Sequence record: MZ726791.1
Source of the DNA: Escherichia phage vB_EcoM_ASO1A
Length of the DNA stretch: 64,000 nt
Reading direction: 5' to 3' (one strand)
Positions within the stretch are counted from its first letter, which is position 1. Each line of letters opens with the position of its first letter. Position numbers and translations under genes: made by a program. The notes below the pieces were generated by a model. That model was given only the letters and a program-made list of their open reading frames with translations, did not search any database and had not been told where the DNA came from. Below are positions 31,075-63,392 of the stretch, one piece after another.

Positions 31075-31153
31075 TCCCTTGTTGACTGATTGTTAAGATG
31101 GTGTTAATATTCTTTATGGGTATTCTCACCATCTTGGCTGATGAGGTGATTAA

Positions 31154-41314: not shown

Positions 41315-41344
41315 GTTGACAATGCACTTGACAAGGTGTTAATC
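41315..41344 (+). promoter_or_regulatory. sigma70-like promoter (TTGACA - 18 nt - TAATCT) with conserved spacer CTTGACAAGGTG
   Basis: Read directly in divergent intergenic region 41256-41512. Confidence 0.5.
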
Positions 41345-41512
41345 TTTGCGAAGTGGGTTTTTACTTAAAAGGTTACTTAACAGTTTAACTATACAGATAC
41401 TTTAAAAGTCTTAAAAGATTATTTAATAGCTTTTAAAAAGCTTTAAAGTATAACGTATAGAATACGTTAAGATAAAAGATTAAAACTTAATAGTTACTTA
41501 AAAGAGGCTTAC

Positions 41513-50780: not shown

Positions 50781-50810
50781 GGAGCCTCTTCGGAGGCTCT
50801 TTTCATCTGT
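50781..50810 (+). terminator. rho-independent terminator (GGAGCCTC-TTCG-GAGGCTC + T-run)
   Basis: Read directly. Confidence 0.65.
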
Positions 50811-50821
50811 AGGATTCAAAA

Positions 50822-53056
50822 ATGATTAAGACAATTAAAAAATCAAACGGTACAGTAGTAAGCTTTGACCCAGAAAGACTGAATAAGTGGGCATCATGGG
50901 CAGATAAGCGTGGAATCATCTGGTCAGAAGTCACTATGGAAGCCATGAAACGTGTCTATGAAGGTTGCACTACAAAAGAGATGCACCAAGCTATGATTGA
51001 TGTTTGTGTTGATAAACAAACTCAAGAGTACTCAGACATGGCTGGACGGCTACTTCTAGGAATTATCTACAAAGAAGCCTTTGGAGGCTTTACTAAGGTT
51101 CCTACGCTGGTTACCTTCGTTAAAAATATGGAGAGAGCAGGACTTTGGGAGAAGATGGATTACTCACAGGAAGAGCTTGAATACCTGCAAGGTTACATCG
51201 TGCACTCAAAAGATATCTCTTACGGTTATGCAGTCTTGAAACAGTTCAGAGACAAGTATGGTATCCGTGATATTAAAACGGGAAGACTTTTTGAGTCACC
51301 ACAATTTATGTTTATGGGTATGGCTATGAAAGCCTTTGAGAAGCAACCAAAGCACCGTAGACTGCAAGATGTTATCAAGCTGTACACTTACCTATCTGAC
51401 CTGAAGATTAACGCTCCTACGCCTTATTTAAACGGTTTGAGGGCAACTAAATCAGGTTATGCGTCATGCTGCTTGATTAAGGCAAACGATACTGCTGAAT
51501 CACTTGGTATTGCTGCAAAGGTTGCTTATGATATGACTACAAAGCAAGCTGGTATCGGTATGCTGATGGAGACTCGCACTATTGGTGATGGTATCCGTCA
51601 AAACACTATCGAACACATGGGTAAACTGCCTTATTACAAGCTTGTACGTTCATCTGTAGAGGCAAACAAACAGAAGAGTCGTGGTGGTTCAGCTAATAAC
51701 TTCTACACTGCTCTAGACCCGCAGATTGAAGATTTACTGCGTTTGAAGCACCCTACAACGGTTCCTTCTAAACGTATTAATGAGATGGACTACTCATTCG
51801 GCACAAACGATTATTTCTGGCAGTGTGTTCAGTATGATACAGATTGGTTGCTATTCTCTTACAAAGATGCACCAAAACTCTATGACATGTTCTACACAGC
51901 ATCTGCTGATGAGTTTGCTATGGCAGTTGGTCACGCAGTACATTCAGGAGTTAAGCACAGACGAGTCAAGGCTCGTGAAATTGCTAAGCTGTTTATTCAA
52001 CAGCGTTATGCTACAGGTCGTGTGTATCCATTCTTCACTAACAACGCAAACACACATACACCATTTAAAGAACCATTGAAGATGTCAAATCTTTGTATGG
52101 AAATTGTGTTGCCAGTGTATGGTTTTGAGAAAGAGACAGACCTTTACAGAGACGATGCTGTGAAAGAGGATGGTGAGGTGGCTCTTTGCTTCCTAGCTAG
52201 TTTGGTTGCAGGGAGAATTTCAGAAGATGAATACGCTGACGTTGCTTATTATGCTCTTGCAATGGTTGACTCCGTTATTGACCTTATGGATTATCCGTAT
52301 CCATCGATGCGCAACCATGTTCAGAAGCGTCGTTCTGTTGGGATTGGCCTTACAAATGTGGCTCATTACCTTGCGAAGAACTACGTGAACTACTCTTCAC
52401 GAGCAGGTAAAACGAAACTTCATGAACTGGCAGAGATGCACTCTTACTATCTGCATGAAGCCTCTCTGAGACTTGCTAAAGAGCGTGGCGTTCCAGAGTA
52501 CATGAAGTTCACTAAGTATCCTGAAGGCTGGGTTCCTCCAAAGACAGCTAACAAGAAGATTGATGAAAAGCATGATGCAAAACTACGATATGATTGGGAT
52601 GACTTAGCACAACGTATCAAAGAAAATGGTGGAATCCGAAACTCTGTATTAGAAGCTTACATGCCTAATGAGAGTTCTTCACTGGCAACTAATACGACAA
52701 ATGGCTTGTACCCAATTCGTGACTTTATTTTAACTAAAAAGTCTGCAACTGGTAACGTGCTGTTTATTGTTCCAGATTATGAAGAGTTGAAGTATGTATA
52801 TGAAATTGCTTGGGGTATTGACACCTTTGACCTGATTGATTGTTATGCAATTGTTCAAAAGTTCACTGGTCAAGCTATCTCTTCAGATTTCTATGTTGAC
52901 TACGCAAAAGCTAAGAAGGTATCATTGGCTCAAGCTTTGAAGTACATGATTTATGCCAACTCGGTAGGTATGAAAACCATGTACTACCTTAACAGTCGCA
53001 TTGGTGTAGGTAAATCTGCACTGCAAGATGCTTATTGCGAGGGTTGTGGTGTTTAG
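50822..53056 (+). CDS. nrdA: ribonucleoside-diphosphate reductase large subunit (class Ia)
   Basis: 744 aa, N-terminal ATP-cone-like region, C-terminal CEGCGV tail; followed by nrdB and glutaredoxin. Confidence 0.85.
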   Translation: MIKTIKKSNGTVVSFDPERLNKWASWADKRGIIWSEVTMEAMKRVYEGCTTKEMHQAMIDVCVDKQTQEYSDMAGRLLLGIIYKEAFGGFTKVPTLVTFVKNMERAGLWEKMDYSQEELEYLQGYIVHSKDISYGYAVLKQFRDKYGIRDIKTGRLFESPQFMFMGMAMKAFEKQPKHRRLQDVIKLYTYLSDLKINAPTPYLNGLRATKSGYASCCLIKANDTAESLGIAAKVAYDMTTKQAGIGMLMETRTIGDGIRQNTIEHMGKLPYYKLVRSSVEANKQKSRGGSANNFYTALDPQIEDLLRLKHPTTVPSKRINEMDYSFGTNDYFWQCVQYDTDWLLFSYKDAPKLYDMFYTASADEFAMAVGHAVHSGVKHRRVKAREIAKLFIQQRYATGRVYPFFTNNANTHTPFKEPLKMSNLCMEIVLPVYGFEKETDLYRDDAVKEDGEVALCFLASLVAGRISEDEYADVAYYALAMVDSVIDLMDYPYPSMRNHVQKRRSVGIGLTNVAHYLAKNYVNYSSRAGKTKLHELAEMHSYYLHEASLRLAKERGVPEYMKFTKYPEGWVPPKTANKKIDEKHDAKLRYDWDDLAQRIKENGGIRNSVLEAYMPNESSSLATNTTNGLYPIRDFILTKKSATGNVLFIVPDYEELKYVYEIAWGIDTFDLIDCYAIVQKFTGQAISSDFYVDYAKAKKVSLAQALKYMIYANSVGMKTMYYLNSRIGVGKSALQDAYCEGCGV

Positions 53057-53111
53057 TTTTAATAACTATGAGGGTCGTAAAAGACCCTCTAAAAATAACT
53101 TTGGAGAGACC

Positions 53112-53369
53112 ATGAAAGATTTAATAGAAAAACATGAGCGACCAATATACTTGCTCTACAAACCCCGCAAAACATTGTACTATGTGAGCAGCACAGGTAT
53201 CATGATAAAGCAGAATGATGACTTATGGGTCACTGGAGCCTCTTACATCTCTACAGCAGATGGTAAAATCTACGCAAGACCTTATGAGATGTTTAACAAA
53301 GAAAATTGGGAAGTTTTAGACAGAAAACAAGCCTTAGAAATGATAAAGAAAGGAGAAATCACGCTATGA
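53112..53369 (+). CDS. hypothetical small protein between nrdA and nrdB
   Basis: Track ORF 53028 trimmed to ATG Met29; stop overlaps nrdB start (ATGA). Confidence 0.4.
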   Translation: MKDLIEKHERPIYLLYKPRKTLYYVSSTGIMIKQNDDLWVTGASYISTADGKIYARPYEMFNKENWEVLDRKQALEMIKKGEITL

Positions 53370-54439
53370 TTAACCAGCACCCAATCTTTTTAGGTGGTGA
53401 GAGAAAAACTTTTGACTCACTTAATAAACACTACCCAAAAATCTTTGAACTTTATAAACAACAAAAAGCACAAGACTGGTCAGAAGATGAGTTCCCTTTT
53501 GAACAATCACGTCTTGATTTTGAGAGTGTCCCAGCATCAATGTCAGGTGTAATGCTTGAGATTCTTAAGTGGCAGTGGGAAGCAGATACTCAAGTTGCTA
53601 AGAGCTTGGCATTTGCCTTTGCACCATTTATCTCTGATGACATCTATGCAACTGCAATTATGAAGCAGTCTGAGATTGAAAACCTACATGCCCTTACTTA
53701 CTCAGAGATTGTAAGGCAATGTATTAAAAACCCTGAAACAATCTTAGATGAGATTAACCAGAATGTTGCTGTGCAAGACCGATTAAAAACTGTGAATCGT
53801 GTTCTTGAAGAATTACTGGATGAAGGTATAAACTATCGTCTGAGTTATGTGCGTGATTCACTTCTGGACAAAGACCCTTTACACTTCCATAAAGTGATTC
53901 TAAAAGGTCTATTTGCAGTGACTGCACTTGAAGGTATATCTTTTATGGCATCCTTTGCATGCACTTTTGCACTTGATGCTCAAGATAAATTTCAGGGTAT
54001 TGCTCAAGCTGTGCAGAAGATTATGCTTGATGAAATCCTTCACACTAAAATTGATATTGAAGTTTTAAAAGAAACTTTAAGAGATGATGAGTGGCAGAAA
54101 GCTTTTCAACAAATTCTTCCAGAGATTAAAGTAATCTTAGATGAAGTAGTTGAAAGTGAAGAGAAATGGTCGTATTATATCTTCTCCGAAGGACGTGCTG
54201 TAGTTGGCTTAAATACAAAGCTTCTTCATGAGTGGGTTTACTATAATGCTGCCCCACTGTATGATATGTTTGGCATTCCCAGAGATTTTGTAGCTCCTAA
54301 AGAACCACCTTTGAAGTACATGATTAAGAAGATGGAAATTGATAAAGAGCAGAATGCTAATCAGGAACAACAGAATGGCGCGTACCTATTGAATACTGTT
54401 GTAGATGATTTGAATAGTGGATTTTTAGAGGTTCCTTAA
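53366..54439 (+). CDS. nrdB: ribonucleoside-diphosphate reductase small subunit (class Ia)
   Basis: Track ORF 53306 trimmed to ATG (MINQHP) after AAGGAGAAA; ~357 aa. Confidence 0.8.
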   Translation: MINQHPIFLGGERKTFDSLNKHYPKIFELYKQQKAQDWSEDEFPFEQSRLDFESVPASMSGVMLEILKWQWEADTQVAKSLAFAFAPFISDDIYATAIMKQSEIENLHALTYSEIVRQCIKNPETILDEINQNVAVQDRLKTVNRVLEELLDEGINYRLSYVRDSLLDKDPLHFHKVILKGLFAVTALEGISFMASFACTFALDAQDKFQGIAQAVQKIMLDEILHTKIDIEVLKETLRDDEWQKAFQQILPEIKVILDEVVESEEKWSYYIFSEGRAVVGLNTKLLHEWVYYNAAPLYDMFGIPRDFVAPKEPPLKYMIKKMEIDKEQNANQEQQNGAYLLNTVVDDLNSGFLEVP

Positions 54440-54681
54440 TGACTTATGTAATTTACTCCAAAACTGGATGCCCTCAGTGCGAGACTGCAAAGAATTTTGC
54501 AAAAGCTCGTGGTATTGACCATGTTGTGAGAATGTTAGGGCAGGACTATGAACTATCAGACCTGATTGATATTGCACAGATGCCAGTTCGTCAGATGCCA
54601 TTCATCATGAAAACTGATGGGCAAAACCTAAAACATGTTGGTACGCTACAGAATTTTATGGCAGAGGTGAATAATGCTTAA
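54439..54681 (+). CDS. glutaredoxin / NrdH-like redoxin
   Basis: 80 aa with CPQC active-site motif. Confidence 0.75.
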   Translation: MTYVIYSKTGCPQCETAKNFAKARGIDHVVRMLGQDYELSDLIDIAQMPVRQMPFIMKTDGQNLKHVGTLQNFMAEVNNA

Positions 54682-54880
54682 ACGCATTTGGGAAGGTTTG
54701 GTTGTTGATGCACCAGCTATTGTGATTGGTATGCTTATCGTTAACCTATTTACTGACTTTGAACAAGGTTCATTGTTTGGAGCCATGTTACTATGGGTTA
54801 TCTTCGAAATATTAGAGATACAGTTAGGTATCACTGAAAAACTAAGAGAACTCTTTGCGAAGTTTTCTAAAAAGATTTAA
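54674..54880 (+). CDS. small membrane protein
   Basis: 68 aa, hydrophobic. Confidence 0.4.
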   Translation: MLKRIWEGLVVDAPAIVIGMLIVNLFTDFEQGSLFGAMLLWVIFEILEIQLGITEKLRELFAKFSKKI

Positions 54881-54884
54881 AATG

Positions 54885-54912
54885 AAAGGGTCTCTTCGGA
54901 GACCTTTTTAGC
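54885..54912 (+). terminator. rho-independent terminator (GGTCTC-TTCG-GAGACC + T-run)
   Basis: Read directly. Confidence 0.6.
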
Positions 54913-54928
54913 ATGTAAAGGGGCAATA

Positions 54929-57073
54929 ATGAACAAAGTACAGATTATTAAAAAGAATGGCTCACTTGAAGAACCTGATATCAAAAAAGTTTTAGCAGCA
55001 GTCACAAAGTCAGCTAACAGAGTTGGTTATAAAGAGCTTCCACCAGATGTTACTCAAGCTCTTGAGTCAGCATTTATGAGGATTCTGGTAAAGTCCACTA
55101 AGCAGAATAATTTGCTAATTTCGGTAAATGATATTCACAGTATTGTTGAGGGTGCTTTGGCAGAAGTCAATCACGAGATTTATGAGTCTTACTCAACATA
55201 TAGAAATTACCGTAAAGAGGTTGCTCAAAATTGGGATGAACTCTACCAGAAGACTAAAGATACACTCTTCTTAGGTGACCGAGAAAACGCTAATTTTGAC
55301 AGCAGTTTAATTTCTACAAAAGGTTCAATTATTCGTGGTTATCTGACTAAAGAAATCTTTAAACAGTACCATTTAACACCAGAGGAACTTGAAGCCATTG
55401 AAAAAGGGTTTATCTACATCCATGATTTAAGAGACCTAATTTTTGGTGGTATCAACTGTTGCCTGTTTGACATTGGTAAAGTCCTGAAAGGTGGCTTTGA
55501 AATGTCTGGCATCGAATATTGTGAACCGAAGTCTGTACTGTCAGCCTTACAGGTTATTGGTGATGTAGTTCTTTCAGCAACTGCACAGCAATTTGGTGGC
55601 TTTACTTTAGCAGAGATTGATAAGGTACTTGTACCGTATGCTAAGAAGTCTCTACACTATCATGCTGAGAAAGCAGCATCTTATGGTATTCCTAAAGAAC
55701 ATTACCACAATTATGTCATGGAGCAGCTACAGATTGAACTGACTCAGGGTTTCCAGTCACTTGAAATGAAACTAAACACTGTACCTTGTAGTCGTGGGGA
55801 TTTTGCATTCACAACTTTGACATTCGGGTTACTTGACTCAGATATGTCCAATGAAGATAACCGACTGCAATACATGATTGCAAGTACTCTCCTAGATGTT
55901 CGTATGAATGGACAAGGTAAGAGCAAGAAGCCTGTTGTATTCCCTAAACTGGTTTATATTTATGACCAGAAGAGACACGATGAGAATATCTGTCAAGGCC
56001 ACCTGTACAGTAAAGCTATTGAGTGTTGCTCTAAAGCAATGTATCCAGACTTCTTAAGTGTATCTGGTCATGGTGCTGTAGCAGAGGCTTTTGAGCGTTC
56101 TGGTAAGGTTATTTCACCAATGGGTTGCAGAGCTTTCTTGTCTCCATATCTTAATGAGGATGGGGAAGAGTTCTACGTTGGTCGTGCTAACATTGGTGCT
56201 GTATCTTTGAACTTACCAATGATTTACCAGTATTCTAAAGAGAATGGATTAGACTTCTGGACAGAACTTGATAAATATCTCGAAATGATTCGTAGCTTCC
56301 ATAAGAAACGCTACGAAATGATTGCTAATATGCCAGCAAGTTCTAACCCTCTTGCATTCACACAAGGTGGTCTGTACAAAGGAACTAAGAAACCTACTGA
56401 CAAGGTTGGTTGGGATATTGTGAAGTCCTTCACAGCTTCTTTTGGTGTTACTGCGCTTGATGAGTTGTCTGTTCTTGCTGAAGGTAAACGACTTCATGAA
56501 GTTGGAAGCTATAGTTTTGCATATGATGTTCTGGCATACATCAACATGAAAACCGAAGAGTTTAAAAATGAAGATGGCTTCTTATATGCCGTCTATGGTA
56601 CTCCAGCAGAATCACTATGTGGGACTCAGCTAAAACAGTTCAGAGATATGTTTGGGGTTATCAAAGGTGTTTCCGATAAGGAATACTTTACAAACAGTTT
56701 CCATATGAATGTTGCAGCAGACATCTCGCCATTTGAGAAGCAGGACTTAGAAGAGCCATTCTTCCATATCTGTAGAGGCGGTAGAATCCAGTATGTAAGA
56801 GTAGCTAACCCAGAAAACTTAACAGCACTTAAAAGTTGTATTACAAGAGGGATGTTGAAAGGTTTCTATCAGGGGCTTAACTTTGACTTAGCAATCTGTG
56901 AACATTGTGGTAACAGACCAAAGGCTGATGTTGAAGAATGTGAGGTTTGCCATTCACATGATATCTCTGTGATTAACAGGGTGTGTGGGTATCTTGGATG
57001 GACTAAGATTAAAGGTGAATCCCGAATGAACGATGCAAAAATCGCTGAGATTCGTGATAGAGTCTCTATGTAA
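54929..57073 (+). CDS. nrdD: anaerobic ribonucleoside-triphosphate reductase (class III)
   Basis: 714 aa; C-terminal zinc ribbon CEHCG ... CEVCHSH and glycyl-radical region RVCGYLG. Confidence 0.85.
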   Translation: MNKVQIIKKNGSLEEPDIKKVLAAVTKSANRVGYKELPPDVTQALESAFMRILVKSTKQNNLLISVNDIHSIVEGALAEVNHEIYESYSTYRNYRKEVAQNWDELYQKTKDTLFLGDRENANFDSSLISTKGSIIRGYLTKEIFKQYHLTPEELEAIEKGFIYIHDLRDLIFGGINCCLFDIGKVLKGGFEMSGIEYCEPKSVLSALQVIGDVVLSATAQQFGGFTLAEIDKVLVPYAKKSLHYHAEKAASYGIPKEHYHNYVMEQLQIELTQGFQSLEMKLNTVPCSRGDFAFTTLTFGLLDSDMSNEDNRLQYMIASTLLDVRMNGQGKSKKPVVFPKLVYIYDQKRHDENICQGHLYSKAIECCSKAMYPDFLSVSGHGAVAEAFERSGKVISPMGCRAFLSPYLNEDGEEFYVGRANIGAVSLNLPMIYQYSKENGLDFWTELDKYLEMIRSFHKKRYEMIANMPASSNPLAFTQGGLYKGTKKPTDKVGWDIVKSFTASFGVTALDELSVLAEGKRLHEVGSYSFAYDVLAYINMKTEEFKNEDGFLYAVYGTPAESLCGTQLKQFRDMFGVIKGVSDKEYFTNSFHMNVAADISPFEKQDLEEPFFHICRGGRIQYVRVANPENLTALKSCITRGMLKGFYQGLNFDLAICEHCGNRPKADVEECEVCHSHDISVINRVCGYLGWTKIKGESRMNDAKIAEIRDRVSM

Positions 57074-57125
57074 AACTTGACAAGGTGATGTGGGTCTTGA
57101 TAGGCTTACATCACCTTTTTTTTTT
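57067..57125 (+). promoter_or_regulatory. promoter (TTGACA - 18 nt - TAGGCT) superimposed on terminator hairpin (GGTGATGT ... ACATCACC + T11)
   Basis: Read directly after nrdD stop. Confidence 0.5.
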
Positions 57126-57232
57126 TATTGGATGTTAGATATGGCAGAGAACATCATTGGCCTATTCATAGGTTCTGTCTTACTAGGGTTCTTTTTAGGA
57201 CTCTCTTATTGTGAATTAAGAGGCAAGTTAAA

Positions 57233-57433
57233 ATGTTTAAAATATCAAAATCGTTGATATACATTCTCCACATTCTAATCTTCTTCTTTGGGGTTAGTGT
57301 TATGGTATGGGGTTTTTCAGACCCACAGTGGAGTTTATCATATCATGGTCAGATGGATTTATGGTCATGCTTCAAACCATTTTTAGGGTTAGCCATAGCA
57401 TTCAGTGTATTGCCAACTAAGGTGAAATTATGA
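57233..57433 (+). CDS. small membrane protein
   Basis: 66 aa, AAGAGG SD, hydrophobic. Confidence 0.45.
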   Translation: MFKISKSLIYILHILIFFFGVSVMVWGFSDPQWSLSYHGQMDLWSCFKPFLGLAIAFSVLPTKVKL

Positions 57434-57825
57434 TTAAGTTGAACAAAAAACAGTTAGAGTGGATTAAAGATTATGCCTCAGAGTGCGGCTCTTGCGAAAA
57501 GAATCACGTAAGATATTCAACATTCCATGCGACCTTCACATTGTACATCAGCGACAACGTTCTAAGTGATTCCGTAGAAGATGGTGTAGCGTTACCTAAT
57601 GAATTACTTGACAAATTAGCTGTAGTTACTGGAACGTGGAGTGAAGAAGATGGTCACGAACTATCTGACAATGTTGTCTTCTACAGTCTTGAAAATATTA
57701 TGAATCCAGAGTACATTATGTTAATGACTTGTGCACAAGACTGTGTGCCATTACAAAACTTCATTAAAGAGCATTGTGAAGAGTTTATTACTAAACAGGT
57801 TCCTTGTCAGGTGGTGTTTGAATGA
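57430..57825 (+). CDS. hypothetical protein
   Basis: 131 aa, coupled. Confidence 0.45.
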   Translation: MIKLNKKQLEWIKDYASECGSCEKNHVRYSTFHATFTLYISDNVLSDSVEDGVALPNELLDKLAVVTGTWSEEDGHELSDNVVFYSLENIMNPEYIMLMTCAQDCVPLQNFIKEHCEEFITKQVPCQVVFE

Positions 57826-58121
57826 GTAAAACAATTCGAAGAAAAGGTTTAAAGAACGTTCACGGACTCTATGAGTGGAGGAATGAGGTACGTAACAGAG
57901 AAAATGCTTCAGATGTCTACTTCCATTCTGATATGATGTCCAGAAAAGGTGGCTCTTATGACTTTACAAGTCAGCCTTGTAGAGAGATTAAGCAGGCTAC
58001 TAAACGTCTTACAAGAACACAAATCAGTCAGCTTTCTAAGACATCCTTCTTAGATGAAGATTTTGACATTGACAGCAAGTCTCCAAAGAAAGCTGCTCAG
58101 AGCACTTATATGTATTGGTGA
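57822..58121 (+). CDS. hypothetical protein
   Basis: 99 aa, coupled. Confidence 0.45.
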   Translation: MSKTIRRKGLKNVHGLYEWRNEVRNRENASDVYFHSDMMSRKGGSYDFTSQPCREIKQATKRLTRTQISQLSKTSFLDEDFDIDSKSPKKAAQSTYMYW

Positions 58122-58130
58122 GGTAACTAG

Positions 58131-58616
58131 ATGAATTACATGGAGATTAGACCATTTGACACAGCTAATGGTGAAGGGGTTCGTGTAAGCCTCTTCGTAG
58201 CTGGTTGTAAACATCACTGTGAAGGCTGCTTTAACAGGGAGTCTTGGAAGTTTAATGCTGGTAAAGAGTTCACTTATGCAAACCTCTATGGCATCATTAA
58301 ATTAATGGATGATAATGCCGTCAGTGGGTTGTCAATACTTGGTGGAGAACCTCTGGATGATAGAAATATTCAAGAGGTTACCAACATATGCAAACGTATT
58401 AAAACCGTTTACCCAGAAAAATCTATCTGGCTATGGACAGGTTTTCAGTTACACGAAAAAATTCACCTAGATGTGATGAAATATGTTGACGTGGTGATTG
58501 ATGGTAAGTATGATTCATCTAAACCAACAGTTAAACCATATCGTGGTTCTGATAACCAAAACCTCTGGAGAAAAGAGTATGGATGGCAAGGCGATTGTCA
58601 ATGGAGAGCCGAGTAA
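58131..58616 (+). CDS. nrdG: anaerobic ribonucleotide reductase activating protein (radical SAM)
   Basis: 161 aa; AGCKHHCEGCFN cysteine cluster. Confidence 0.75.
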   Translation: MNYMEIRPFDTANGEGVRVSLFVAGCKHHCEGCFNRESWKFNAGKEFTYANLYGIIKLMDDNAVSGLSILGGEPLDDRNIQEVTNICKRIKTVYPEKSIWLWTGFQLHEKIHLDVMKYVDVVIDGKYDSSKPTVKPYRGSDNQNLWRKEYGWQGDCQWRAE

Positions 58617-58740: not shown

Positions 58741-58998
58741 ATGGGACTCTGGAATAGTTTTAAATCAAAAGTAAAAGCAGCACTAGCTTCATTAGGTATG
58801 CTCACTGGTGTTGATGTGACTCACCTTATGCAGAACTTCAATATGGATGAGAAGCTGGCTAATGAGATTATGAAAAGTATCTATGTAGGCCGTGGTAAAG
58901 GTGGTAAGAAACAAGCCCACCGTCCGTCTGGTGCAGCAGCTATTAAACGAGCAGCTAAGAAAGCTCGTAACCGTAAACGTAATAAGAAGGCTAAATAA
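58741..58998 (+). CDS. hypothetical protein with basic C-terminal tail
   Basis: 85 aa. Confidence 0.4.
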   Translation: MGLWNSFKSKVKAALASLGMLTGVDVTHLMQNFNMDEKLANEIMKSIYVGRGKGGKKQAHRPSGAAAIKRAAKKARNRKRNKKAK

Positions 58999-59000
58999 TC

Positions 59001-59321
59001 ATGAGCAAAGTTTATAACACTCGCAAATTACAGATTTTCGTACTGTGCCAGTTTATGGCTAAAGAATATAACTTCTACTATTGCGGCACAGGTTTTATTA
59101 GCGACGATGATGGTTCATACCTACCATTTAAAGAAGCTGTGAAGCTCTTTAATGAAGAGAAAAGCTCTAAGAAAGATATTGAAAAGGTTAAGCTAACCTA
59201 CAGCAAGAAAGATAAGAAGATTATCTGCCTAGATAACTTTGTGAAAGTTACTGGAGAAGCAAAAGAGTTTATGGATGAGAGTGAGATTTCATTCACAAGC
59301 ATCTTGAAAGTAGCTCAGTAA
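59001..59321 (+). CDS. hypothetical protein
   Basis: 106 aa; terminator hairpin downstream (GGGAAC ... GTTCCC + T-run, about 59335-59368). Confidence 0.45.
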   Translation: MSKVYNTRKLQIFVLCQFMAKEYNFYYCGTGFISDDDGSYLPFKEAVKLFNEEKSSKKDIEKVKLTYSKKDKKIICLDNFVKVTGEAKEFMDESEISFTSILKVAQ

Positions 59322-59371
59322 ACAGATACTATAAGGGAACTGTAAAGGTTCCCTTTTATTTTGGAGATGAT

Positions 59372-59887: not shown

Positions 59888-60158
59888 AGAAAAGTGGGAG
59901 ATTTTACCATTAGTCAGTGAAGGAGGTAATGGTTGTGAAATGTACATGATACGTGGTCATGTTCCAGAGCCAATTGCACTTGAGATGGTAAACAACTTTA
60001 CAGATGGTTCTTACAAAGACTTAGGCGAACCAACTGTCAAGCAACAATGGGTAAAGCCTGTACCAGACAGCACAGGTAACTGTAGTGTACTTTACCACGT
60101 TGTAGACCCTGTAAAATGCAAATCTGCAATGGCAGTAACAAACGTAACTTTTGATTGA
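59880..60158 (+). CDS. hypothetical protein
   Basis: 92 aa. Confidence 0.4.
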   Translation: MAKEKWEILPLVSEGGNGCEMYMIRGHVPEPIALEMVNNFTDGSYKDLGEPTVKQQWVKPVPDSTGNCSVLYHVVDPVKCKSAMAVTNVTFD

Positions 60159-60169
60159 GAGAGAAAACT

Positions 60170-61051
60170 ATGAAAACATCTATCCGTGTCACAATTCATT
60201 CACCGACTAAAGGAACTCATGAAGAAGAGTTTAACATCATCCAATTCCCTTCTGGTGAGATTGGTGGCCACTTTTCACAAGAGCTTGTTGATTTTACTGC
60301 TTATGCAGCATCATCTATTAACAATGTGGTTATGATTGTAAAGGGTTATGACAAAGACACACTGTTTGCTGTGGCACTGGCTAAAGAAGCAATTGACGAT
60401 TTAGTTCCTCATGATTATGCCCTGAAGACTGTCATTTTTTACTACTTGCCAAATGCACGATACGACCGTCACATGTTTAAAGGCGACGCAGCAGCTTTAA
60501 AGGTTTTTGCTAAACAGGTAAATGCAATGGGATTTGGTGCAGTCTGTGCAGTTGACCCTCACAGTTACGTTCCAGATAACCTGTTTAACTGCTTCCAGAG
60601 TATTCCTCAAAAGGAGATTGCAGTCCACTATGCAAATGACCCACTGGTTGATTACTTAGTAGCCCCAGATGCAGGTGCTGCTAAGAAGGTTGCAGAGACC
60701 GCTAAAGAGGTGGGTAAACCATATATCACAATGTCTAAAGTACGCAACCTTAAGACTGGTGAAATTACTGGTATGCGAATCCTTGATGATGTTGATTTGA
60801 CAGATAAAACCGTCATGATTCTGGATGATATCTGTGATGGTGGTCGAACCTTCATAGAAGCAGCGAAACATCTTCGTGAAGCAGGTGCAAAACGTGTGGA
60901 ACTTTATGTAACACATGGTATCTTCTCTAAAGATGTTGAAAACCTTCTTGACAATGGTATCGACCATATTTACACTACAAACTCTTTAGGTGAAGCTAAA
61001 GACCGTGGCTTAACACATTATAGTCAAGTTACTGTAGCAAATTTGGATTAG
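60170..61051 (+). CDS. ribose-phosphate pyrophosphokinase (PRPP synthetase)-family protein; possible ADPR-pyrophosphate synthetase
   Basis: PRPP-binding loop TVMILDDICDGGRTF; track start TTG at 60155 moved to ATG after GAGAGAGAAA. Confidence 0.7.
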   Translation: MKTSIRVTIHSPTKGTHEEEFNIIQFPSGEIGGHFSQELVDFTAYAASSINNVVMIVKGYDKDTLFAVALAKEAIDDLVPHDYALKTVIFYYLPNARYDRHMFKGDAAALKVFAKQVNAMGFGAVCAVDPHSYVPDNLFNCFQSIPQKEIAVHYANDPLVDYLVAPDAGAAKKVAETAKEVGKPYITMSKVRNLKTGEITGMRILDDVDLTDKTVMILDDICDGGRTFIEAAKHLREAGAKRVELYVTHGIFSKDVENLLDNGIDHIYTTNSLGEAKDRGLTHYSQVTVANLD

Positions 61052-61568: not shown

Positions 61569-63350
61569 ATGAGTAAATCACTTTACGCAGTACCAGCAGG
61601 TCTTAATGCAGATGCTTACAAGTCATCACATATATATCAGTATCCAGATGCTACACAGTATCTTATGCTGAACCTGACACCACGTAGCGACAAATGGTTT
61701 AACAGCCCCTTAGCAATTGACGGTGTAGTAGCTTTTGGTATTCAACGTTTTGTTAAAGATTACTTGATAGACCACTGGAATGCCACTTTCTTTGAACGTG
61801 ATAAAAAAGAAGCAATTGACGAAATCTTAGAAGTCATGAATGGTGTTCTGGGTAAAGATGCTATAGGTCGAGAGCATTGGGAAGCACTTCACGACTTAGG
61901 CTATCTACCAGTTGAAGTATACGCTGTAGAAGAAGGCACAGTTGTCCCTATGCGTGTTCCGATGATTGTTTTCCAGAACACTGTTTCAGGTTTCCATTGG
62001 GTAGCAGGTTATCTGGAAGATGCTTTCTCTGCTGAGATTTGGAAGGCTTGTACCATTGCAACTATTGCATTGCACTACAAACGTATCTGTAAGAAGTGGG
62101 CTGACCTTACTTGTGACAACGACTTGCATTTACCTTATCAGTGCCATGACTTTGCTATGCGTGGTATGTCCGGCTTTACTGATGACGCATTTAACGCTGT
62201 AGGCCACTTAACCAGCTTTAAAGGAACTGATAGCTTTCCTGCTGTGTATACGGCTAAACGAATCTATGGACAGTCCTACCCAATCTCTGATATTGGTAGC
62301 TCTGTACCAGCCACTGAGCACTCTGTAATGTGTGCAAACATTGCTTGGGAAGGTGGTAATGAGTTGATTGAAGAAGAAAGACGCTTTAAAGGTGAGTTAC
62401 AAACCTTCCGTCGTTTCTTAACAGAAACTTACCCAACGGGTATTGCAAGTATTGTTTCAGATACTTATAACTTCTGGAGAACTGTGTCAGTTATATTACC
62501 AGAACTTCGTAAAGAGATTATGGAACGTGATGGTAAACTGGTAATTCGTCCTGACTCTGGAGACCCTGTACATATTGTCACAGGATACAAAGCAATCCAT
62601 TTAGAGTGTGCTAAAAAGGCTTATTACGAACACCTAAGTAAGCTGGAAGCCAGCGACACAATGTTGAATGCTGTTCTGAACATGAAGCTTGAAAACATCA
62701 ATTATGGTATTGCTGGATGGCTACTGTCAGAAGGCTACGAAATGGTTGTTGACAGAGAAGACTTTGAAGTTGCTGATACAGTGCTGTTGAAAAACGCTTA
62801 TATGGTTGGTTCTGCAAACGTTGTAACACGTCCTGTAGCTGAGATTGATGGAGCTATTAAGACACTGTACAACATCTTTGGAGGAACTATTAACTCTAAA
62901 GGTTTTAAGGTACTGGATGAGCACATTGGCCTTATCTATGGCGACTCTATCACGCTGGAACGTGCAAACGAAATCCTGAAGCGTCTGTATGAAATGGGTT
63001 TTGCAAGCTCTAACGTAGTGTTTGGCGTAGGCTCTTACACTTACCAGTACATGACTCGTGACACCTTTGCATTTGCTGTTAAAGCAACTCTTGCAAGCAT
63101 TGGTGGTAAAGAGATTATGCTTGCAAAAGACCCTAAAACAGATAGTGGTGTTAAGAAGTCTGCTTTTGGTGGTGTAGCACCTATGTGGGATGGTGATAAG
63201 TTGAAAGCTGTAGATGGCTATGGATTCCAGAGCTTTGCAGATGTACTTGAACATCCAGCTTGTGCTTTACGTTTAGTCTTTAGCGACTCTGAGCAGTTCG
63301 GTTACACAACGCTTGGTGATATTCGAAATAATATTGACAAGCAGCTTTAA
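61569..63350 (+). CDS. nicotinamide phosphoribosyltransferase (NAMPT/NadV)-family protein
   Basis: 593 aa; call rests on overall family resemblance (not a single motif) and on adjacency to the PRPP-synthetase-like gene. Confidence 0.7.
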   Translation: MSKSLYAVPAGLNADAYKSSHIYQYPDATQYLMLNLTPRSDKWFNSPLAIDGVVAFGIQRFVKDYLIDHWNATFFERDKKEAIDEILEVMNGVLGKDAIGREHWEALHDLGYLPVEVYAVEEGTVVPMRVPMIVFQNTVSGFHWVAGYLEDAFSAEIWKACTIATIALHYKRICKKWADLTCDNDLHLPYQCHDFAMRGMSGFTDDAFNAVGHLTSFKGTDSFPAVYTAKRIYGQSYPISDIGSSVPATEHSVMCANIAWEGGNELIEEERRFKGELQTFRRFLTETYPTGIASIVSDTYNFWRTVSVILPELRKEIMERDGKLVIRPDSGDPVHIVTGYKAIHLECAKKAYYEHLSKLEASDTMLNAVLNMKLENINYGIAGWLLSEGYEMVVDREDFEVADTVLLKNAYMVGSANVVTRPVAEIDGAIKTLYNIFGGTINSKGFKVLDEHIGLIYGDSITLERANEILKRLYEMGFASSNVVFGVGSYTYQYMTRDTFAFAVKATLASIGGKEIMLAKDPKTDSGVKKSAFGGVAPMWDGDKLKAVDGYGFQSFADVLEHPACALRLVFSDSEQFGYTTLGDIRNNIDKQL

Positions 63351-63359
63351 AAGTATATG

Positions 63360-63392
63360 ATAAGAGGCTCCTACGGGAGCCTTTTTAATTTC
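63360..63392 (+). terminator. rho-independent terminator (GGCTCC-TAC-GGGAGCC + T-run)
   Basis: Read directly. Confidence 0.65.

Follow-up and report, generated by a model that had tools for sequence, protein, structure and literature searches.

What separates the gene of the anaerobic ribonucleotide reductase (RNR), nrdD, from that of its activase, nrdG, in a Felix O1-like coliphage, and does this separation uncouple the two? On the T4 map both genes are presumably adjacent; in the window analysed here, a stretch of 64,000 nucleotides from Escherichia phage vB_EcoM_ASO1A (MZ726791.1), nrdG lies well downstream, as the initial annotation had noted, with 1,057 nt from the nrdD stop to the nrdG start. 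That annotation explained the gap by an inserted three-gene cassette with its own promoter. Its gene calls, unit structure and terminator stand; the cassette is not supported. We consider it probable that the region is a conserved Ounavirinae nucleotide-reduction module, in which the nrdD-nrdG interval is old and opens with a hairpin terminator containing a predicted promoter.

The phage is a Felixounavirus with vB_EcoM_ASO1B as its closest relative (100% identity over the RNR region); 245 phage records match 80% or more of this region. The cluster consists of the standard, previously annotated nucleotide-reduction genes of a Felix O1-like coliphage and is, as such, an ordinary finding. An nrdABDG plus glutaredoxin cluster has been described for Felix O1 (PMC3185647); Felix O1 (ORF112-121) and wV8 (gp125-130) share its gene content and order, the small ORFs of the nrdD-nrdG interval included, at 93-97% DNA identity, and this layout is annotated in more than 200 further public genomes. 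Pfam and NCBIfam matches confirmed nrdA, nrdB, a CPQC glutaredoxin, nrdD and nrdG as genuine where they had been placed. Hairpin terminators would split the module, which is encoded on the + strand, into three blocks: nrdA to a 68-aa ORF (orf68); nrdD alone; and four small ORFs (orf38, orfA, orfB and orfC) with nrdG and two or three further small ORFs.

Upstream of the first block, a terminator-like hairpin can be read in the sequence (GAGCCTC-TTCG-GAGGCTC and T4, 50782-50803), which is annotated in ASO1B as a rho-independent terminator and equals t111 in the Felix O1 listing (PMC3185647 Table 2). The nrdA gene (50822-53056; counterpart of Felix O1 ORF112) encodes the 744-aa large subunit of a class Ia RNR (PF02867, E 2e-90; PF00317, E 3e-14), with a weak ATP-cone match below cutoff. 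Between nrdA and nrdB lies an 85-aa ORF of phrog_2652 (53112-53369), for which a start at 53028 (113 aa) had been proposed; this is probably too long and 53112 most likely the start, because the PHROG profile matches only residues 29-113 and the Felix O1 counterpart, ORF113, measures 258 nt. There follow nrdB (53366-54439), encoding the 357-aa class Ia small subunit (PF00268, E 2e-34; in agreement with the ASO1B annotation), and an 80-aa glutaredoxin (54439-54681; PF00462, 29.9 bits, cutoff 22.9; phrog_22 thioredoxin domain), whose CPQC active site is legible in the translation. The hydrophobic orf68 (54674-54880; phrog_4532) corresponds to Felix O1 ORF116, an annotated membrane protein, and is kept as far as SUSP2 (69% DNA identity).

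Ahead of nrdD, a promoter scan and the sequence revealed a promoter-like TTGCGA-17-TAAAAT abutting a terminator-like hairpin GGTCTC-TTCG-GAGACC with T5 (54855-54909; hairpin 54889-54909), a site corresponding to P117 and t116 of Felix O1 (PMC3185647). The uninterrupted nrdD gene (54929-57073) encodes a class III anaerobic RNR of 714 aa (PF13597, E 5e-114) with ATP-cone (E 7e-12) and Gly_radical domains, and its translation shows a glycyl-radical motif, RVCGY, and four cysteines (Cys4) at the C-terminus. The nrdG gene (58131-58616) encodes the radical-SAM activase of NrdD, 161 aa long and with a CX3CX2C motif (TIGR02491, 198 bits, cutoff 126; PF13353, E 4e-43). Beyond nrdG (58741-59355) are two small ORFs of 85 and 106 aa and a terminator hairpin (59333-59355; t124 of Felix O1, PMC3185647), which probably closes a unit that may begin at position 57075.

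How is transcription organized at the start of the nrdD-nrdG interval? Based on sequence, folding and cross-genus conservation, we identified a composite element (57075-57126) made of the 13-mer ACTTGACAAGGTG with a -35-like TTGACA (57077-57082), a hairpin of 16 pairs (57082-57117), an extended -10-like TGaTAGGCT in the loop and 3' arm (57098-57106), and a T11 tract (57116-57126). The strong hairpin terminator initially proposed after nrdD was confirmed (16 pairs and 11 T): the calculated folding energy of -27.1 kcal/mol (z = -4.7) was equalled by no shuffle. The T-tract counts 11 in the window; most relatives have T5-T6, and the ASO1B record shows T13. Across three genera, TTGACA, TGaTAGGCT and the hairpin are conserved, with 92-95% identity in the element and 74-81% in the flanking DNA. 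Pairing is retained in 97.9% of cells, with seven wobble-compatible G-U/A-U switches and a single compensatory pair; the covariation thus rests on few independent events, this count being reached by 166 of 500 shuffles. The pattern TTGACA-N15-TGnTAnnnT occurs 3 times versus 0.14 expected, and ACTTGACAAGGTG has exactly three + strand copies in the window. The other two copies lie at A-rich intergenic promoter-like sites with tandem TTGACA, of which one is located at a divergent early region and one is also followed by TAGGCTTA.

From these features, it is plausible that the terminator has a promoter built in: in the candidate, the -35 is perfect, the spacer measures 18 nt and the -10 is extended by TG. 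We propose that the 16-bp hairpin terminator contains a sigma-70-like promoter, TTGACA-N15-TGaTAGGCT, and that RNA initiated about 7 nt past the -10, being devoid of the hairpin's 5' arm, would escape termination. The element would then stop or attenuate transcripts coming from nrdD and restart transcription for the small ORFs and nrdG. Phages ESCO50, GEC_vB_B1 and Si3, in which the small ORFs are missing, retain the hairpin directly before nrdG; here nrdG starts about 20 nt past the T-tract and must therefore be expressed through or from the element.

Alternatively, the hairpin could serve only as a terminator or as an RNA 3'-end stabiliser or processing site, with a non-functional TTGACA...TAGGCT and with nrdG and the small ORFs reached by read-through from upstream. 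We tend to doubt this reading but take it seriously: the hairpin with its T-tract is strong, the G-U/A-U switches point to RNA-level selection on the + strand, and the -10 is poor. A simple promoter scan made no call at the element because TAGGCT fits just 3 of 6 consensus positions, and the ASO1B annotators placed no promoter there but a weak one inside orfA. End-point RT-PCR in Felix O1 assigned nrdD (ORF117) and nrdG (ORF121) to one temporal class, the signal being strongest at 60 min (PMC3185647 Table 3), which also counts weakly against any decoupling. However, the loop and the 3' arm carrying the -10 are nearly invariant (loop and -10 hexamer unchanged in all 15 different variants), in contrast to the variable 5' arm, TTGACA is invariant save in one variant, and the exact 13-mer is common to the two other promoter-like sites, including the one also followed by TAGGCTTA. 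Moreover, a 16-bp hairpin with T5-T11 before nrdG, as in the phages without the small ORFs, would starve nrdG unless it were leaky or transcription restarted. Conservation of the loop could also have other causes, e.g. RNA processing at this site or recognition by the homing endonuclease that inserts next to it. The same Felix O1 assay, which is end-point and semi-quantitative, gave a peak at 25 min for orfB (ORF120) versus 60 min for nrdG (PMC3185647), a difference that misfits a simple single operon; our literature search found no Felixounavirus transcriptome study.

The closest known counterparts of a promoter-containing terminator are the PeSL (promoter-early stem-loop) elements of the T4-type phages RB49 and phi1 (Arbiol et al. 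2010, PMC2839356). Like PeSL, the element appears to combine a sigma-70-like promoter with a terminator stem-loop between -35 and -10 that overlaps the -10. Its setting is also shared: it fills the gap separating a stop codon from the following SD/ATG, and the region around it is hyperplastic with many small ORFans; nrdD is itself named among the PeSL-associated genes (PMC2839356). Unlike PeSL, which form a family of dispersed repeats on either side of each ORFan, it is single and conserved; only the 13-mer is found again (3 sites in the window), and deletions occur via TATTGG microhomology and not by recombination between two elements. It also has no AT-rich upstream block, as it abuts the nrdD stop codon, it belongs to a different phage subfamily, and its promoter and terminator are predicted from sequence.

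The interval itself holds not three small ORFs, as first described, but four conserved ones. The overlooked orf38 (57141-57257), a single-pass membrane peptide of 38 aa, equals wV8 gp126 and Felix O1 ORF118 and was left unannotated in ASO1B; most of its substitutions among relatives affect the third codon position (13, 32 and 96 at positions one, two and three), a bias present in all ORFs of the interval. It is followed by orfA (57233-57433; 66-aa membrane protein, phrog_11929, wV8 gp127), found only in Felixounavirus, the 131-aa ORFan orfB (57430-57825; phrog_4382), which in three genera is conserved next to nrdG on its upstream side, and the 99-aa basic ORFan orfC (57822-58121; phrog_1774), with a weak DUF5499 match below cutoff. 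From orf38 through nrdG, the five genes overlap or abut without gaps (25 nt for orf38/orfA, ATGA for orfA/orfB and orfB/orfC), and the nrdG Shine-Dalgarno GAGG overlaps the orfC stop codon; nrdG is thus packed with the small ORFs and not insulated by them. Homology and fold searches with the small ORFs detected nothing beyond phage families, and we regard them as accessory genes that the phage can dispense with, without assignable function; two encode membrane peptides.

Could orfB, and possibly other small ORFs, be a working accessory of the anaerobic reductase, e.g. a helper of NrdG activation or a protection of NrdD? Such a role would explain why orfB stays beside nrdG, almost always directly upstream and abutting or overlapping it in three genera, and purifying selection (332 synonymous versus 116 non-synonymous codon differences) is in line with it. 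We nevertheless consider it improbable: nrdD and nrdG are intact in phages without orfB, and NrdD and NrdG work without it in T4-type phages and bacteria. OrfB has only one invariant cysteine, which makes a conserved metal or Fe-S site unlikely, and searches for families, defence systems and folds gave no match (AF2 pLDDT 69 for the predicted structure); a deep homology search gave 4 hits only, the family being confined to Ounavirinae.

Did a mobile small-ORF cassette with its own promoter enter this lineage between nrdD and nrdG, once neighbours, and uncouple nrdG? Interval content does differ among relatives, the nrdD-nrdG gap is only 64-67 nt in ESCO50 and SP4 SHa-2019, and the 987-bp block is bounded by 6-bp direct repeats, TATTGG. 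However, the nrdD/small-ORF/nrdG arrangement is largely shared: orfB is the gene directly before nrdG in three genera (Felixounavirus, Suspvirus and Mooglevirus; 40-56% identity), SUSP2, Mordin and further Suspvirus/Mooglevirus-like loci included, and is present in ~248 records versus ~257 related phage records with a close nrdG (~9 without orfB). The orfC gene has been lost repeatedly: Felix O1 has no intact copy and an orfB-nrdG gap of 59 nt, whereas the window and wV8 keep it. Relatives of the L006 type carry the remnants ATGAGTAAAACAATT...ATTGGTGA, and L018 and L021 an in-frame MSKTIRRKGLKNV/YMYW fusion; these 5' and 3' remnants of orfC imply two different deletions. ESCO50, GEC_vB_B1 and Si3 are without all 987 bp between two TATTGG repeats, with the junction exactly between those at 57126-57131 and 58113-58118, and since the ESCO50 junction contains the last orfC codons, it derives from an orfC-bearing genome. 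The hairpin/promoter-like element remains in these 'empty' genomes and thus is not part of any cassette, and the G+C of the block (0.373) is not unusual for the window. Cross-genus conservation and the orfC remnants largely refute the insertion, which we regard as very improbable.

More distant relatives carry still more ORFs at this place: ten separate nrdD from nrdG in Yersinia phage P778, and many small ones follow nrdD in Pectobacterium phage Wc4, for which no nrdG is annotated. Distant orfC homologues lie in both stretches. Within the series, ASO1B-type genomes have the fullest interval, and their relatives show progressive deletions as well as inserted homing endonuclease genes. An HNH endonuclease stands directly after the nrdD stop codon (with a MobE-like annotation in phage Barry) or splits nrdD in relatives (PMC4837284). 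The T4 nrd region likewise contains free-standing homing endonucleases, with mobE between nrdA and nrdB, and the I-TevII intron in nrdD (PMC2988022); as in T4, both RNR classes are phage-encoded and RNR genes are homing endonuclease hot spots, but the RNR region of the window has neither endonuclease gene nor intron.

In summary, the nrdD-nrdG interval is, as far as sequence comparison tells, an old, variable and hyperplastic site that accommodates small accessory genes, and not the product of a recent insertion, and any transcriptional break between nrdD and nrdG belongs to the hairpin and not to the small ORFs. Within this module, class Ia NrdA/NrdB with the phage's own glutaredoxin would serve aerobic growth, and anaerobic growth in the gut would fall to class III NrdD, activated by NrdG.

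Is the stretch between nrdD and nrdG an inserted cassette of three genes, as the initial annotation proposed? We compared the synteny of 38 related loci, of which 29 came from IMG/VR and the remainder from GenBank phage records, and found the insertion unsupported. The distance from nrdD to nrdG is 1,057 nt, and the conserved count of open reading frames in this interval is four, not three; the one that was missed encodes a 38-aa membrane peptide (orf38, 57141-57257) and precedes orfA (57233-57433), orfB (57430-57825) and orfC (57822-58121). OrfB (131 aa) lies directly 5' of nrdG at 40-56% identity in three genera, Felixounavirus, Suspvirus (SUSP2) and Mooglevirus (Mordin), and tblastn recovered it in about 248 records, against about 257 with a close nrdG. 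OrfA (66 aa) was found in Felixounavirus only, and orfC (99 aa) is intact in 88 Felixounavirus records.

Relatives that lack orfC fall into classes defined by what was left behind. One class retains the first five codons of orfC and the final two, with a short filler between them, and in a second codon 13 is fused in frame to the last four codons; judged by their sequences, these remnants are two independent deletions. A third class comprises ESCO50 together with Si3 and GEC_vB_B1, the last two of which also contain an additional HNH gene; it has lost the whole block that lies between a TATTGG hexamer at 57126-57131 and another at 58113-58118. Since the 3' end of orfC forms part of this junction, the ancestor would have been a genome like that of the window. 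Deletion junctions in the relatives either carry the TATTGG microhomology or are irregular, and a search for long repeats flanking the interval found none, only the 6-bp TATTGG repeat. In more distant relatives the equivalent position contains even more ORFs: phage P778 has ten between nrdD and nrdG, an orfC homologue among them, and Wc4, in which nrdG is not annotated, holds many small ORFs 3' of nrdD, again including an orfC homologue. The occurrence of orfB across genera, the orfC remnants, the TATTGG junction and the P778 and Wc4 arrangements together argue that the window shows the fullest, older state. On this comparison, the interval is a long-standing variable stretch, and the genomes in which nrdD and nrdG adjoin are derived.

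A mobile cassette or moron is recognized by its absence, at a clean empty site, from relatives both close and distant, with presence the derived state, and by a promoter and terminator of its own. Here, orfB occurs in three genera, the empty-site genomes read as derived deletions whose junction includes the 3' end of orfC, and no pair of promoter and terminator belongs to the ORFs: no terminator is present between orfC and nrdG, and the hairpin/promoter element that had been assigned to the cassette stays behind in cassette-less genomes.

This element directly follows the nrdD stop codon, and its sequence ACTTGACAAGGTGRTGTRGGTCTTGATAGGCTTRCATCACC with the adjoining T-tract has this position in each of the three genera; in loci with an inserted homing endonuclease gene, the element comes after that gene and not after nrdD. 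Judged by this distribution, it is independent of the ORFs 3' of it. It consists of a + strand hairpin at 57082-57117 (16 pairs and a T11 tail; -27.1 kcal/mol, z = -4.7), a -35-like TTGACA at 57077-57082 and an extended -10-like TGaTAGGCT at 57098-57106, both on the + strand and both recognized as sequence matches. Across genera the element is 92-95% identical, compared with 74-81% in the neighbouring DNA. Over 15 distinct variants, pairing is kept in 97.9% of cells, with one compensatory G-C to A-U change and seven G-U/A-U switches, and the variation is confined to the 5' arm, while the loop and the 3' arm are almost invariant. Such wobble switches suggest that the + strand RNA is under selection, which would be expected of a terminator for rightward transcripts. 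The TGaTAGGCT motif falls in the invariant part, 18 nt 3' of TTGACA, which is itself invariant save in one variant, and the window has three occurrences of the extended -10 promoter pattern, where 0.14 would be expected. If transcription began a few bases past TAGGCT, the RNA would be missing the hairpin's 5' arm and would escape termination. About 20 nt separate the T-tract from the start of nrdG in cassette-less phages, so that nrdG expression must either pass through the element or start at it. A combined terminator and promoter is therefore a plausible and reasonable reading of the element.

The T-tract itself varies in length, with T11 in the window, T13 in ASO1B (phage vB_EcoM_ASO1B, the closest relative) and T5-T7 in every other relative examined; the long tract may be a genuine homopolymer expansion or a sequencing artefact. 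In seven of the loci (L003, L007, L008, L017, L025, L028 and L033) an HNH homing endonuclease gene is inserted precisely after the nrdD stop codon and ahead of the hairpin, for example at 112-920 of L003, and the inserted gene has ATGTA(A/G) duplicated on both sides. The HNH gene after nrdD is annotated as MobE-like in phage Barry. In GEC_vB_B1 a second HNH gene splits nrdD, as one likewise does in UAB_Phi87 (PMC4837284); the window has neither a post-nrdD HNH gene nor an HNH-split nrdD.

The closest described analogue of the nrdD element is the PeSL of the T4-type phages RB49 and phi1 (PMC2839356), with which it shares, at the level of sequence, sigma-70-like -35 and -10 motifs with a stem-loop between or overlapping them. 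PeSLs, however, form a repeated family whose recombining copies flank single ORFans, and no second copy of the hairpin element was found in the window, where the hairpin core gives partial intragenic matches at chance level. A dispersed PeSL-like repeat family was rejected, and because the element is not a dispersed repeat here, we do not place it in the PeSL family.

Only a 13-mer, ACTTGACAAGGTG, recurs. It has exactly three copies in the window, to which the rest of the ASO1B record adds none: one at 57075 in the element and two, at 459 and 41326, without a hairpin. The sites around the latter two (449-480 and 41316-41350) are A-rich and intergenic, with tandem TTGACA boxes 12 nt apart; one lies in the divergent region thought to start early transcription, and at the other of the two intergenic sites TAGGCTTA likewise comes after the 13-mer. 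Both share the exact ACTTGACAAGGTG and a downstream ACTTAAAAGGTT motif, and CTTGaCAAG is palindromic. Probably these two sites act as major early promoters, or else a regulator binds there; for the equivalent divergent region of Felix O1, Whichard et al. reported that they had found no obvious promoter. Elsewhere in the window, promoter-like sites of the TTGACA type overlap hairpins or adjoin them at 983-1030, 2486-2520, 31082-31140 and 63334-63390, and the ASO1B annotation lists several neighbouring promoter/terminator pairs. This pattern suggests that composite promoter/stem-loop punctuation could be general in this genome.

From orf38 to nrdG, five genes overlap or abut: one pair shares 25 nt, two pairs overlap as ATGA, and the Shine-Dalgarno sequence of nrdG sits on the orfC stop codon. 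From the element onward, no hairpin was found before 59333. This tight packing, together with the lack of a hairpin before 59333, suggests a single putative transcription unit from the element to the terminator at 59333. Further terminator-like hairpins lie upstream of nrdA and upstream of nrdD, which leaves nrdD alone between two hairpins. It had been proposed that the insertion might uncouple nrdG from nrdD. By end-point RT-PCR in Felix O1, nrdA, nrdB, grx and orfB are maximal at 25 min, and nrdD and nrdG are both maximal at 60 min (PMC3185647, Table 3); this shared peak, weak as it is as evidence, does not suggest uncoupling. A literature search for transcriptome or transcription start site data from Felixounavirus found no relevant paper.

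The reductase genes themselves, nrdA, nrdB, glutaredoxin, nrdD and nrdG, were borne out by Pfam and NCBIfam at the positions first assigned to them. NrdD has the catalytic domain (PF13597, E 5e-114) and the glycyl-radical domain (PF01228, E 1.5e-4), and its translation holds the RVCGY glycyl-radical motif and a C-terminal Cys4 zinc site, CEHC...CEVC. NrdG reaches the TIGR02491 equivalog with 198 bits (cutoff 126.1) and PF13353 with E 4e-43, and carries the CX3CX2C radical-SAM cluster motif as CKHHCEGC. The pair is a class III (anaerobic) ribonucleotide reductase. NrdA, with barrel and all-alpha large-subunit domains (PF02867, E 2e-90; PF00317, E 3e-14), and NrdB, a ferritin-like small subunit (PF00268, E 2e-34), are a class Ia ribonucleotide reductase; the N-terminal ATP-cone of NrdA (overall activity site, PF03477) scores 20.5 bits, under the cutoff of 25.8. 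The glutaredoxin has the thioredoxin-fold domain (PF00462, 29.9 bits, cutoff 22.9) and a CxxC active site that reads CPQC instead of the usual CPYC; it reached no NCBIfam equivalog cutoff, and its subfamily is Grx or NrdH-like. The start of the small ORF between nrdA and nrdB is probably at 53112 and not where it was initially placed. Both the cluster and the small ORFs within it were known beforehand from the Felix O1 and wV8 records and from the literature.

All four small ORFs of the interval show coding-type divergence, and none matched families of known function, defence-system models or solved structures. Orf38, a single-pass membrane peptide (MAENIIGLFIGSVLLGFFLGLSYCELRGKLKCLKYQNR), corresponds to wV8 gp126 and Felix O1 ORF118; it differs among relatives mostly at third codon positions and is unannotated in ASO1B and several other records. 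Three loci (L026, L027 and L031) have a different small hydrophobic ORF in its slot. For orfC, we found just a sub-threshold DUF5499 match and an insignificant PDB sequence match. OrfB hit ORFan families only in Pfam, PHROGs, NCBIfam and PADLOC, and close relatives only in a word-indexed search. An exhaustive, profile-free HMMER search of 1.84 billion representatives returned four matches: a near-identical Felixounavirus copy (93%), a 134-aa protein at 37% identity, which seems to be a genuine distant homologue, and two large multi-stretch proteins, which appear spurious; this search found no orfB family outside these phages. The AlphaFold2 model of orfB (pLDDT 69) gave nothing below E 0.09 against the PDB in Foldseek, with TM at most 0.36, and an Fe-S or zinc protein was rejected, as only one Cys is invariant. 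Could orfB be a non-essential accessory of the anaerobic reductase, for instance tuning NrdG activation, with the hairpin and 13-mer forming a regulated terminator/promoter switch to set the ratio of NrdD to NrdG? An accessory role draws its sole support from gene adjacency, and we consider this combined scheme quite improbable.

The stretch 50822-58616 is 100% identical to ASO1B (MZ726792.1; Felixounavirus, Ounavirinae), and a coverage of at least 80% is reached by 245 phage records, mostly at 90-97% identity. The gene cluster is already known, and it belongs to a phage genus that has been well sampled. The window and the ASO1B record are not one and the same: they agree across the nrd region but differ in the T-tract and in 30000-52000. 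The latter stretch aligns with 53871-77494 of MZ726792.1 in five pieces, not colinearly, at 98.3% identity, and ASO1B has about 1.6 kb extra there, which may be the endonuclease genes ASO1B_105/106 (HNH, GIY-YIG). Because of this lack of colinearity and the 98.3% identity with a difference of about 1.6 kb, the window, as read from the alignment, derives from a mosaic relative of ASO1B. Public records assigned to unrelated hosts, GU169904.1 (Staphylococcus phage SA1), MG065664.1 (Campylobacter phage A132) and protein P0087 (Methanobrevibacter gottschalkii), contain sequence of the Felix O1 type that is 93-96% identical; contamination or chimerism of these entries is the most likely explanation. 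At 60155-61051 and beyond, 3' of the nrd unit, the ASO1B annotation places PRPP synthetase, an HNH endonuclease and nicotinamide phosphoribosyltransferase, the NAD-salvage module already known from Felix O1.

How transcription gets past the many terminators of Felix O1 was left open (PMC3185647), and a putative conserved promoter within a terminator hairpin would offer a testable answer. As natural deletions remove them, all four small ORFs are dispensable for a viable phage, and this deletion series is useful for engineering Felix O1-type therapeutic phages.
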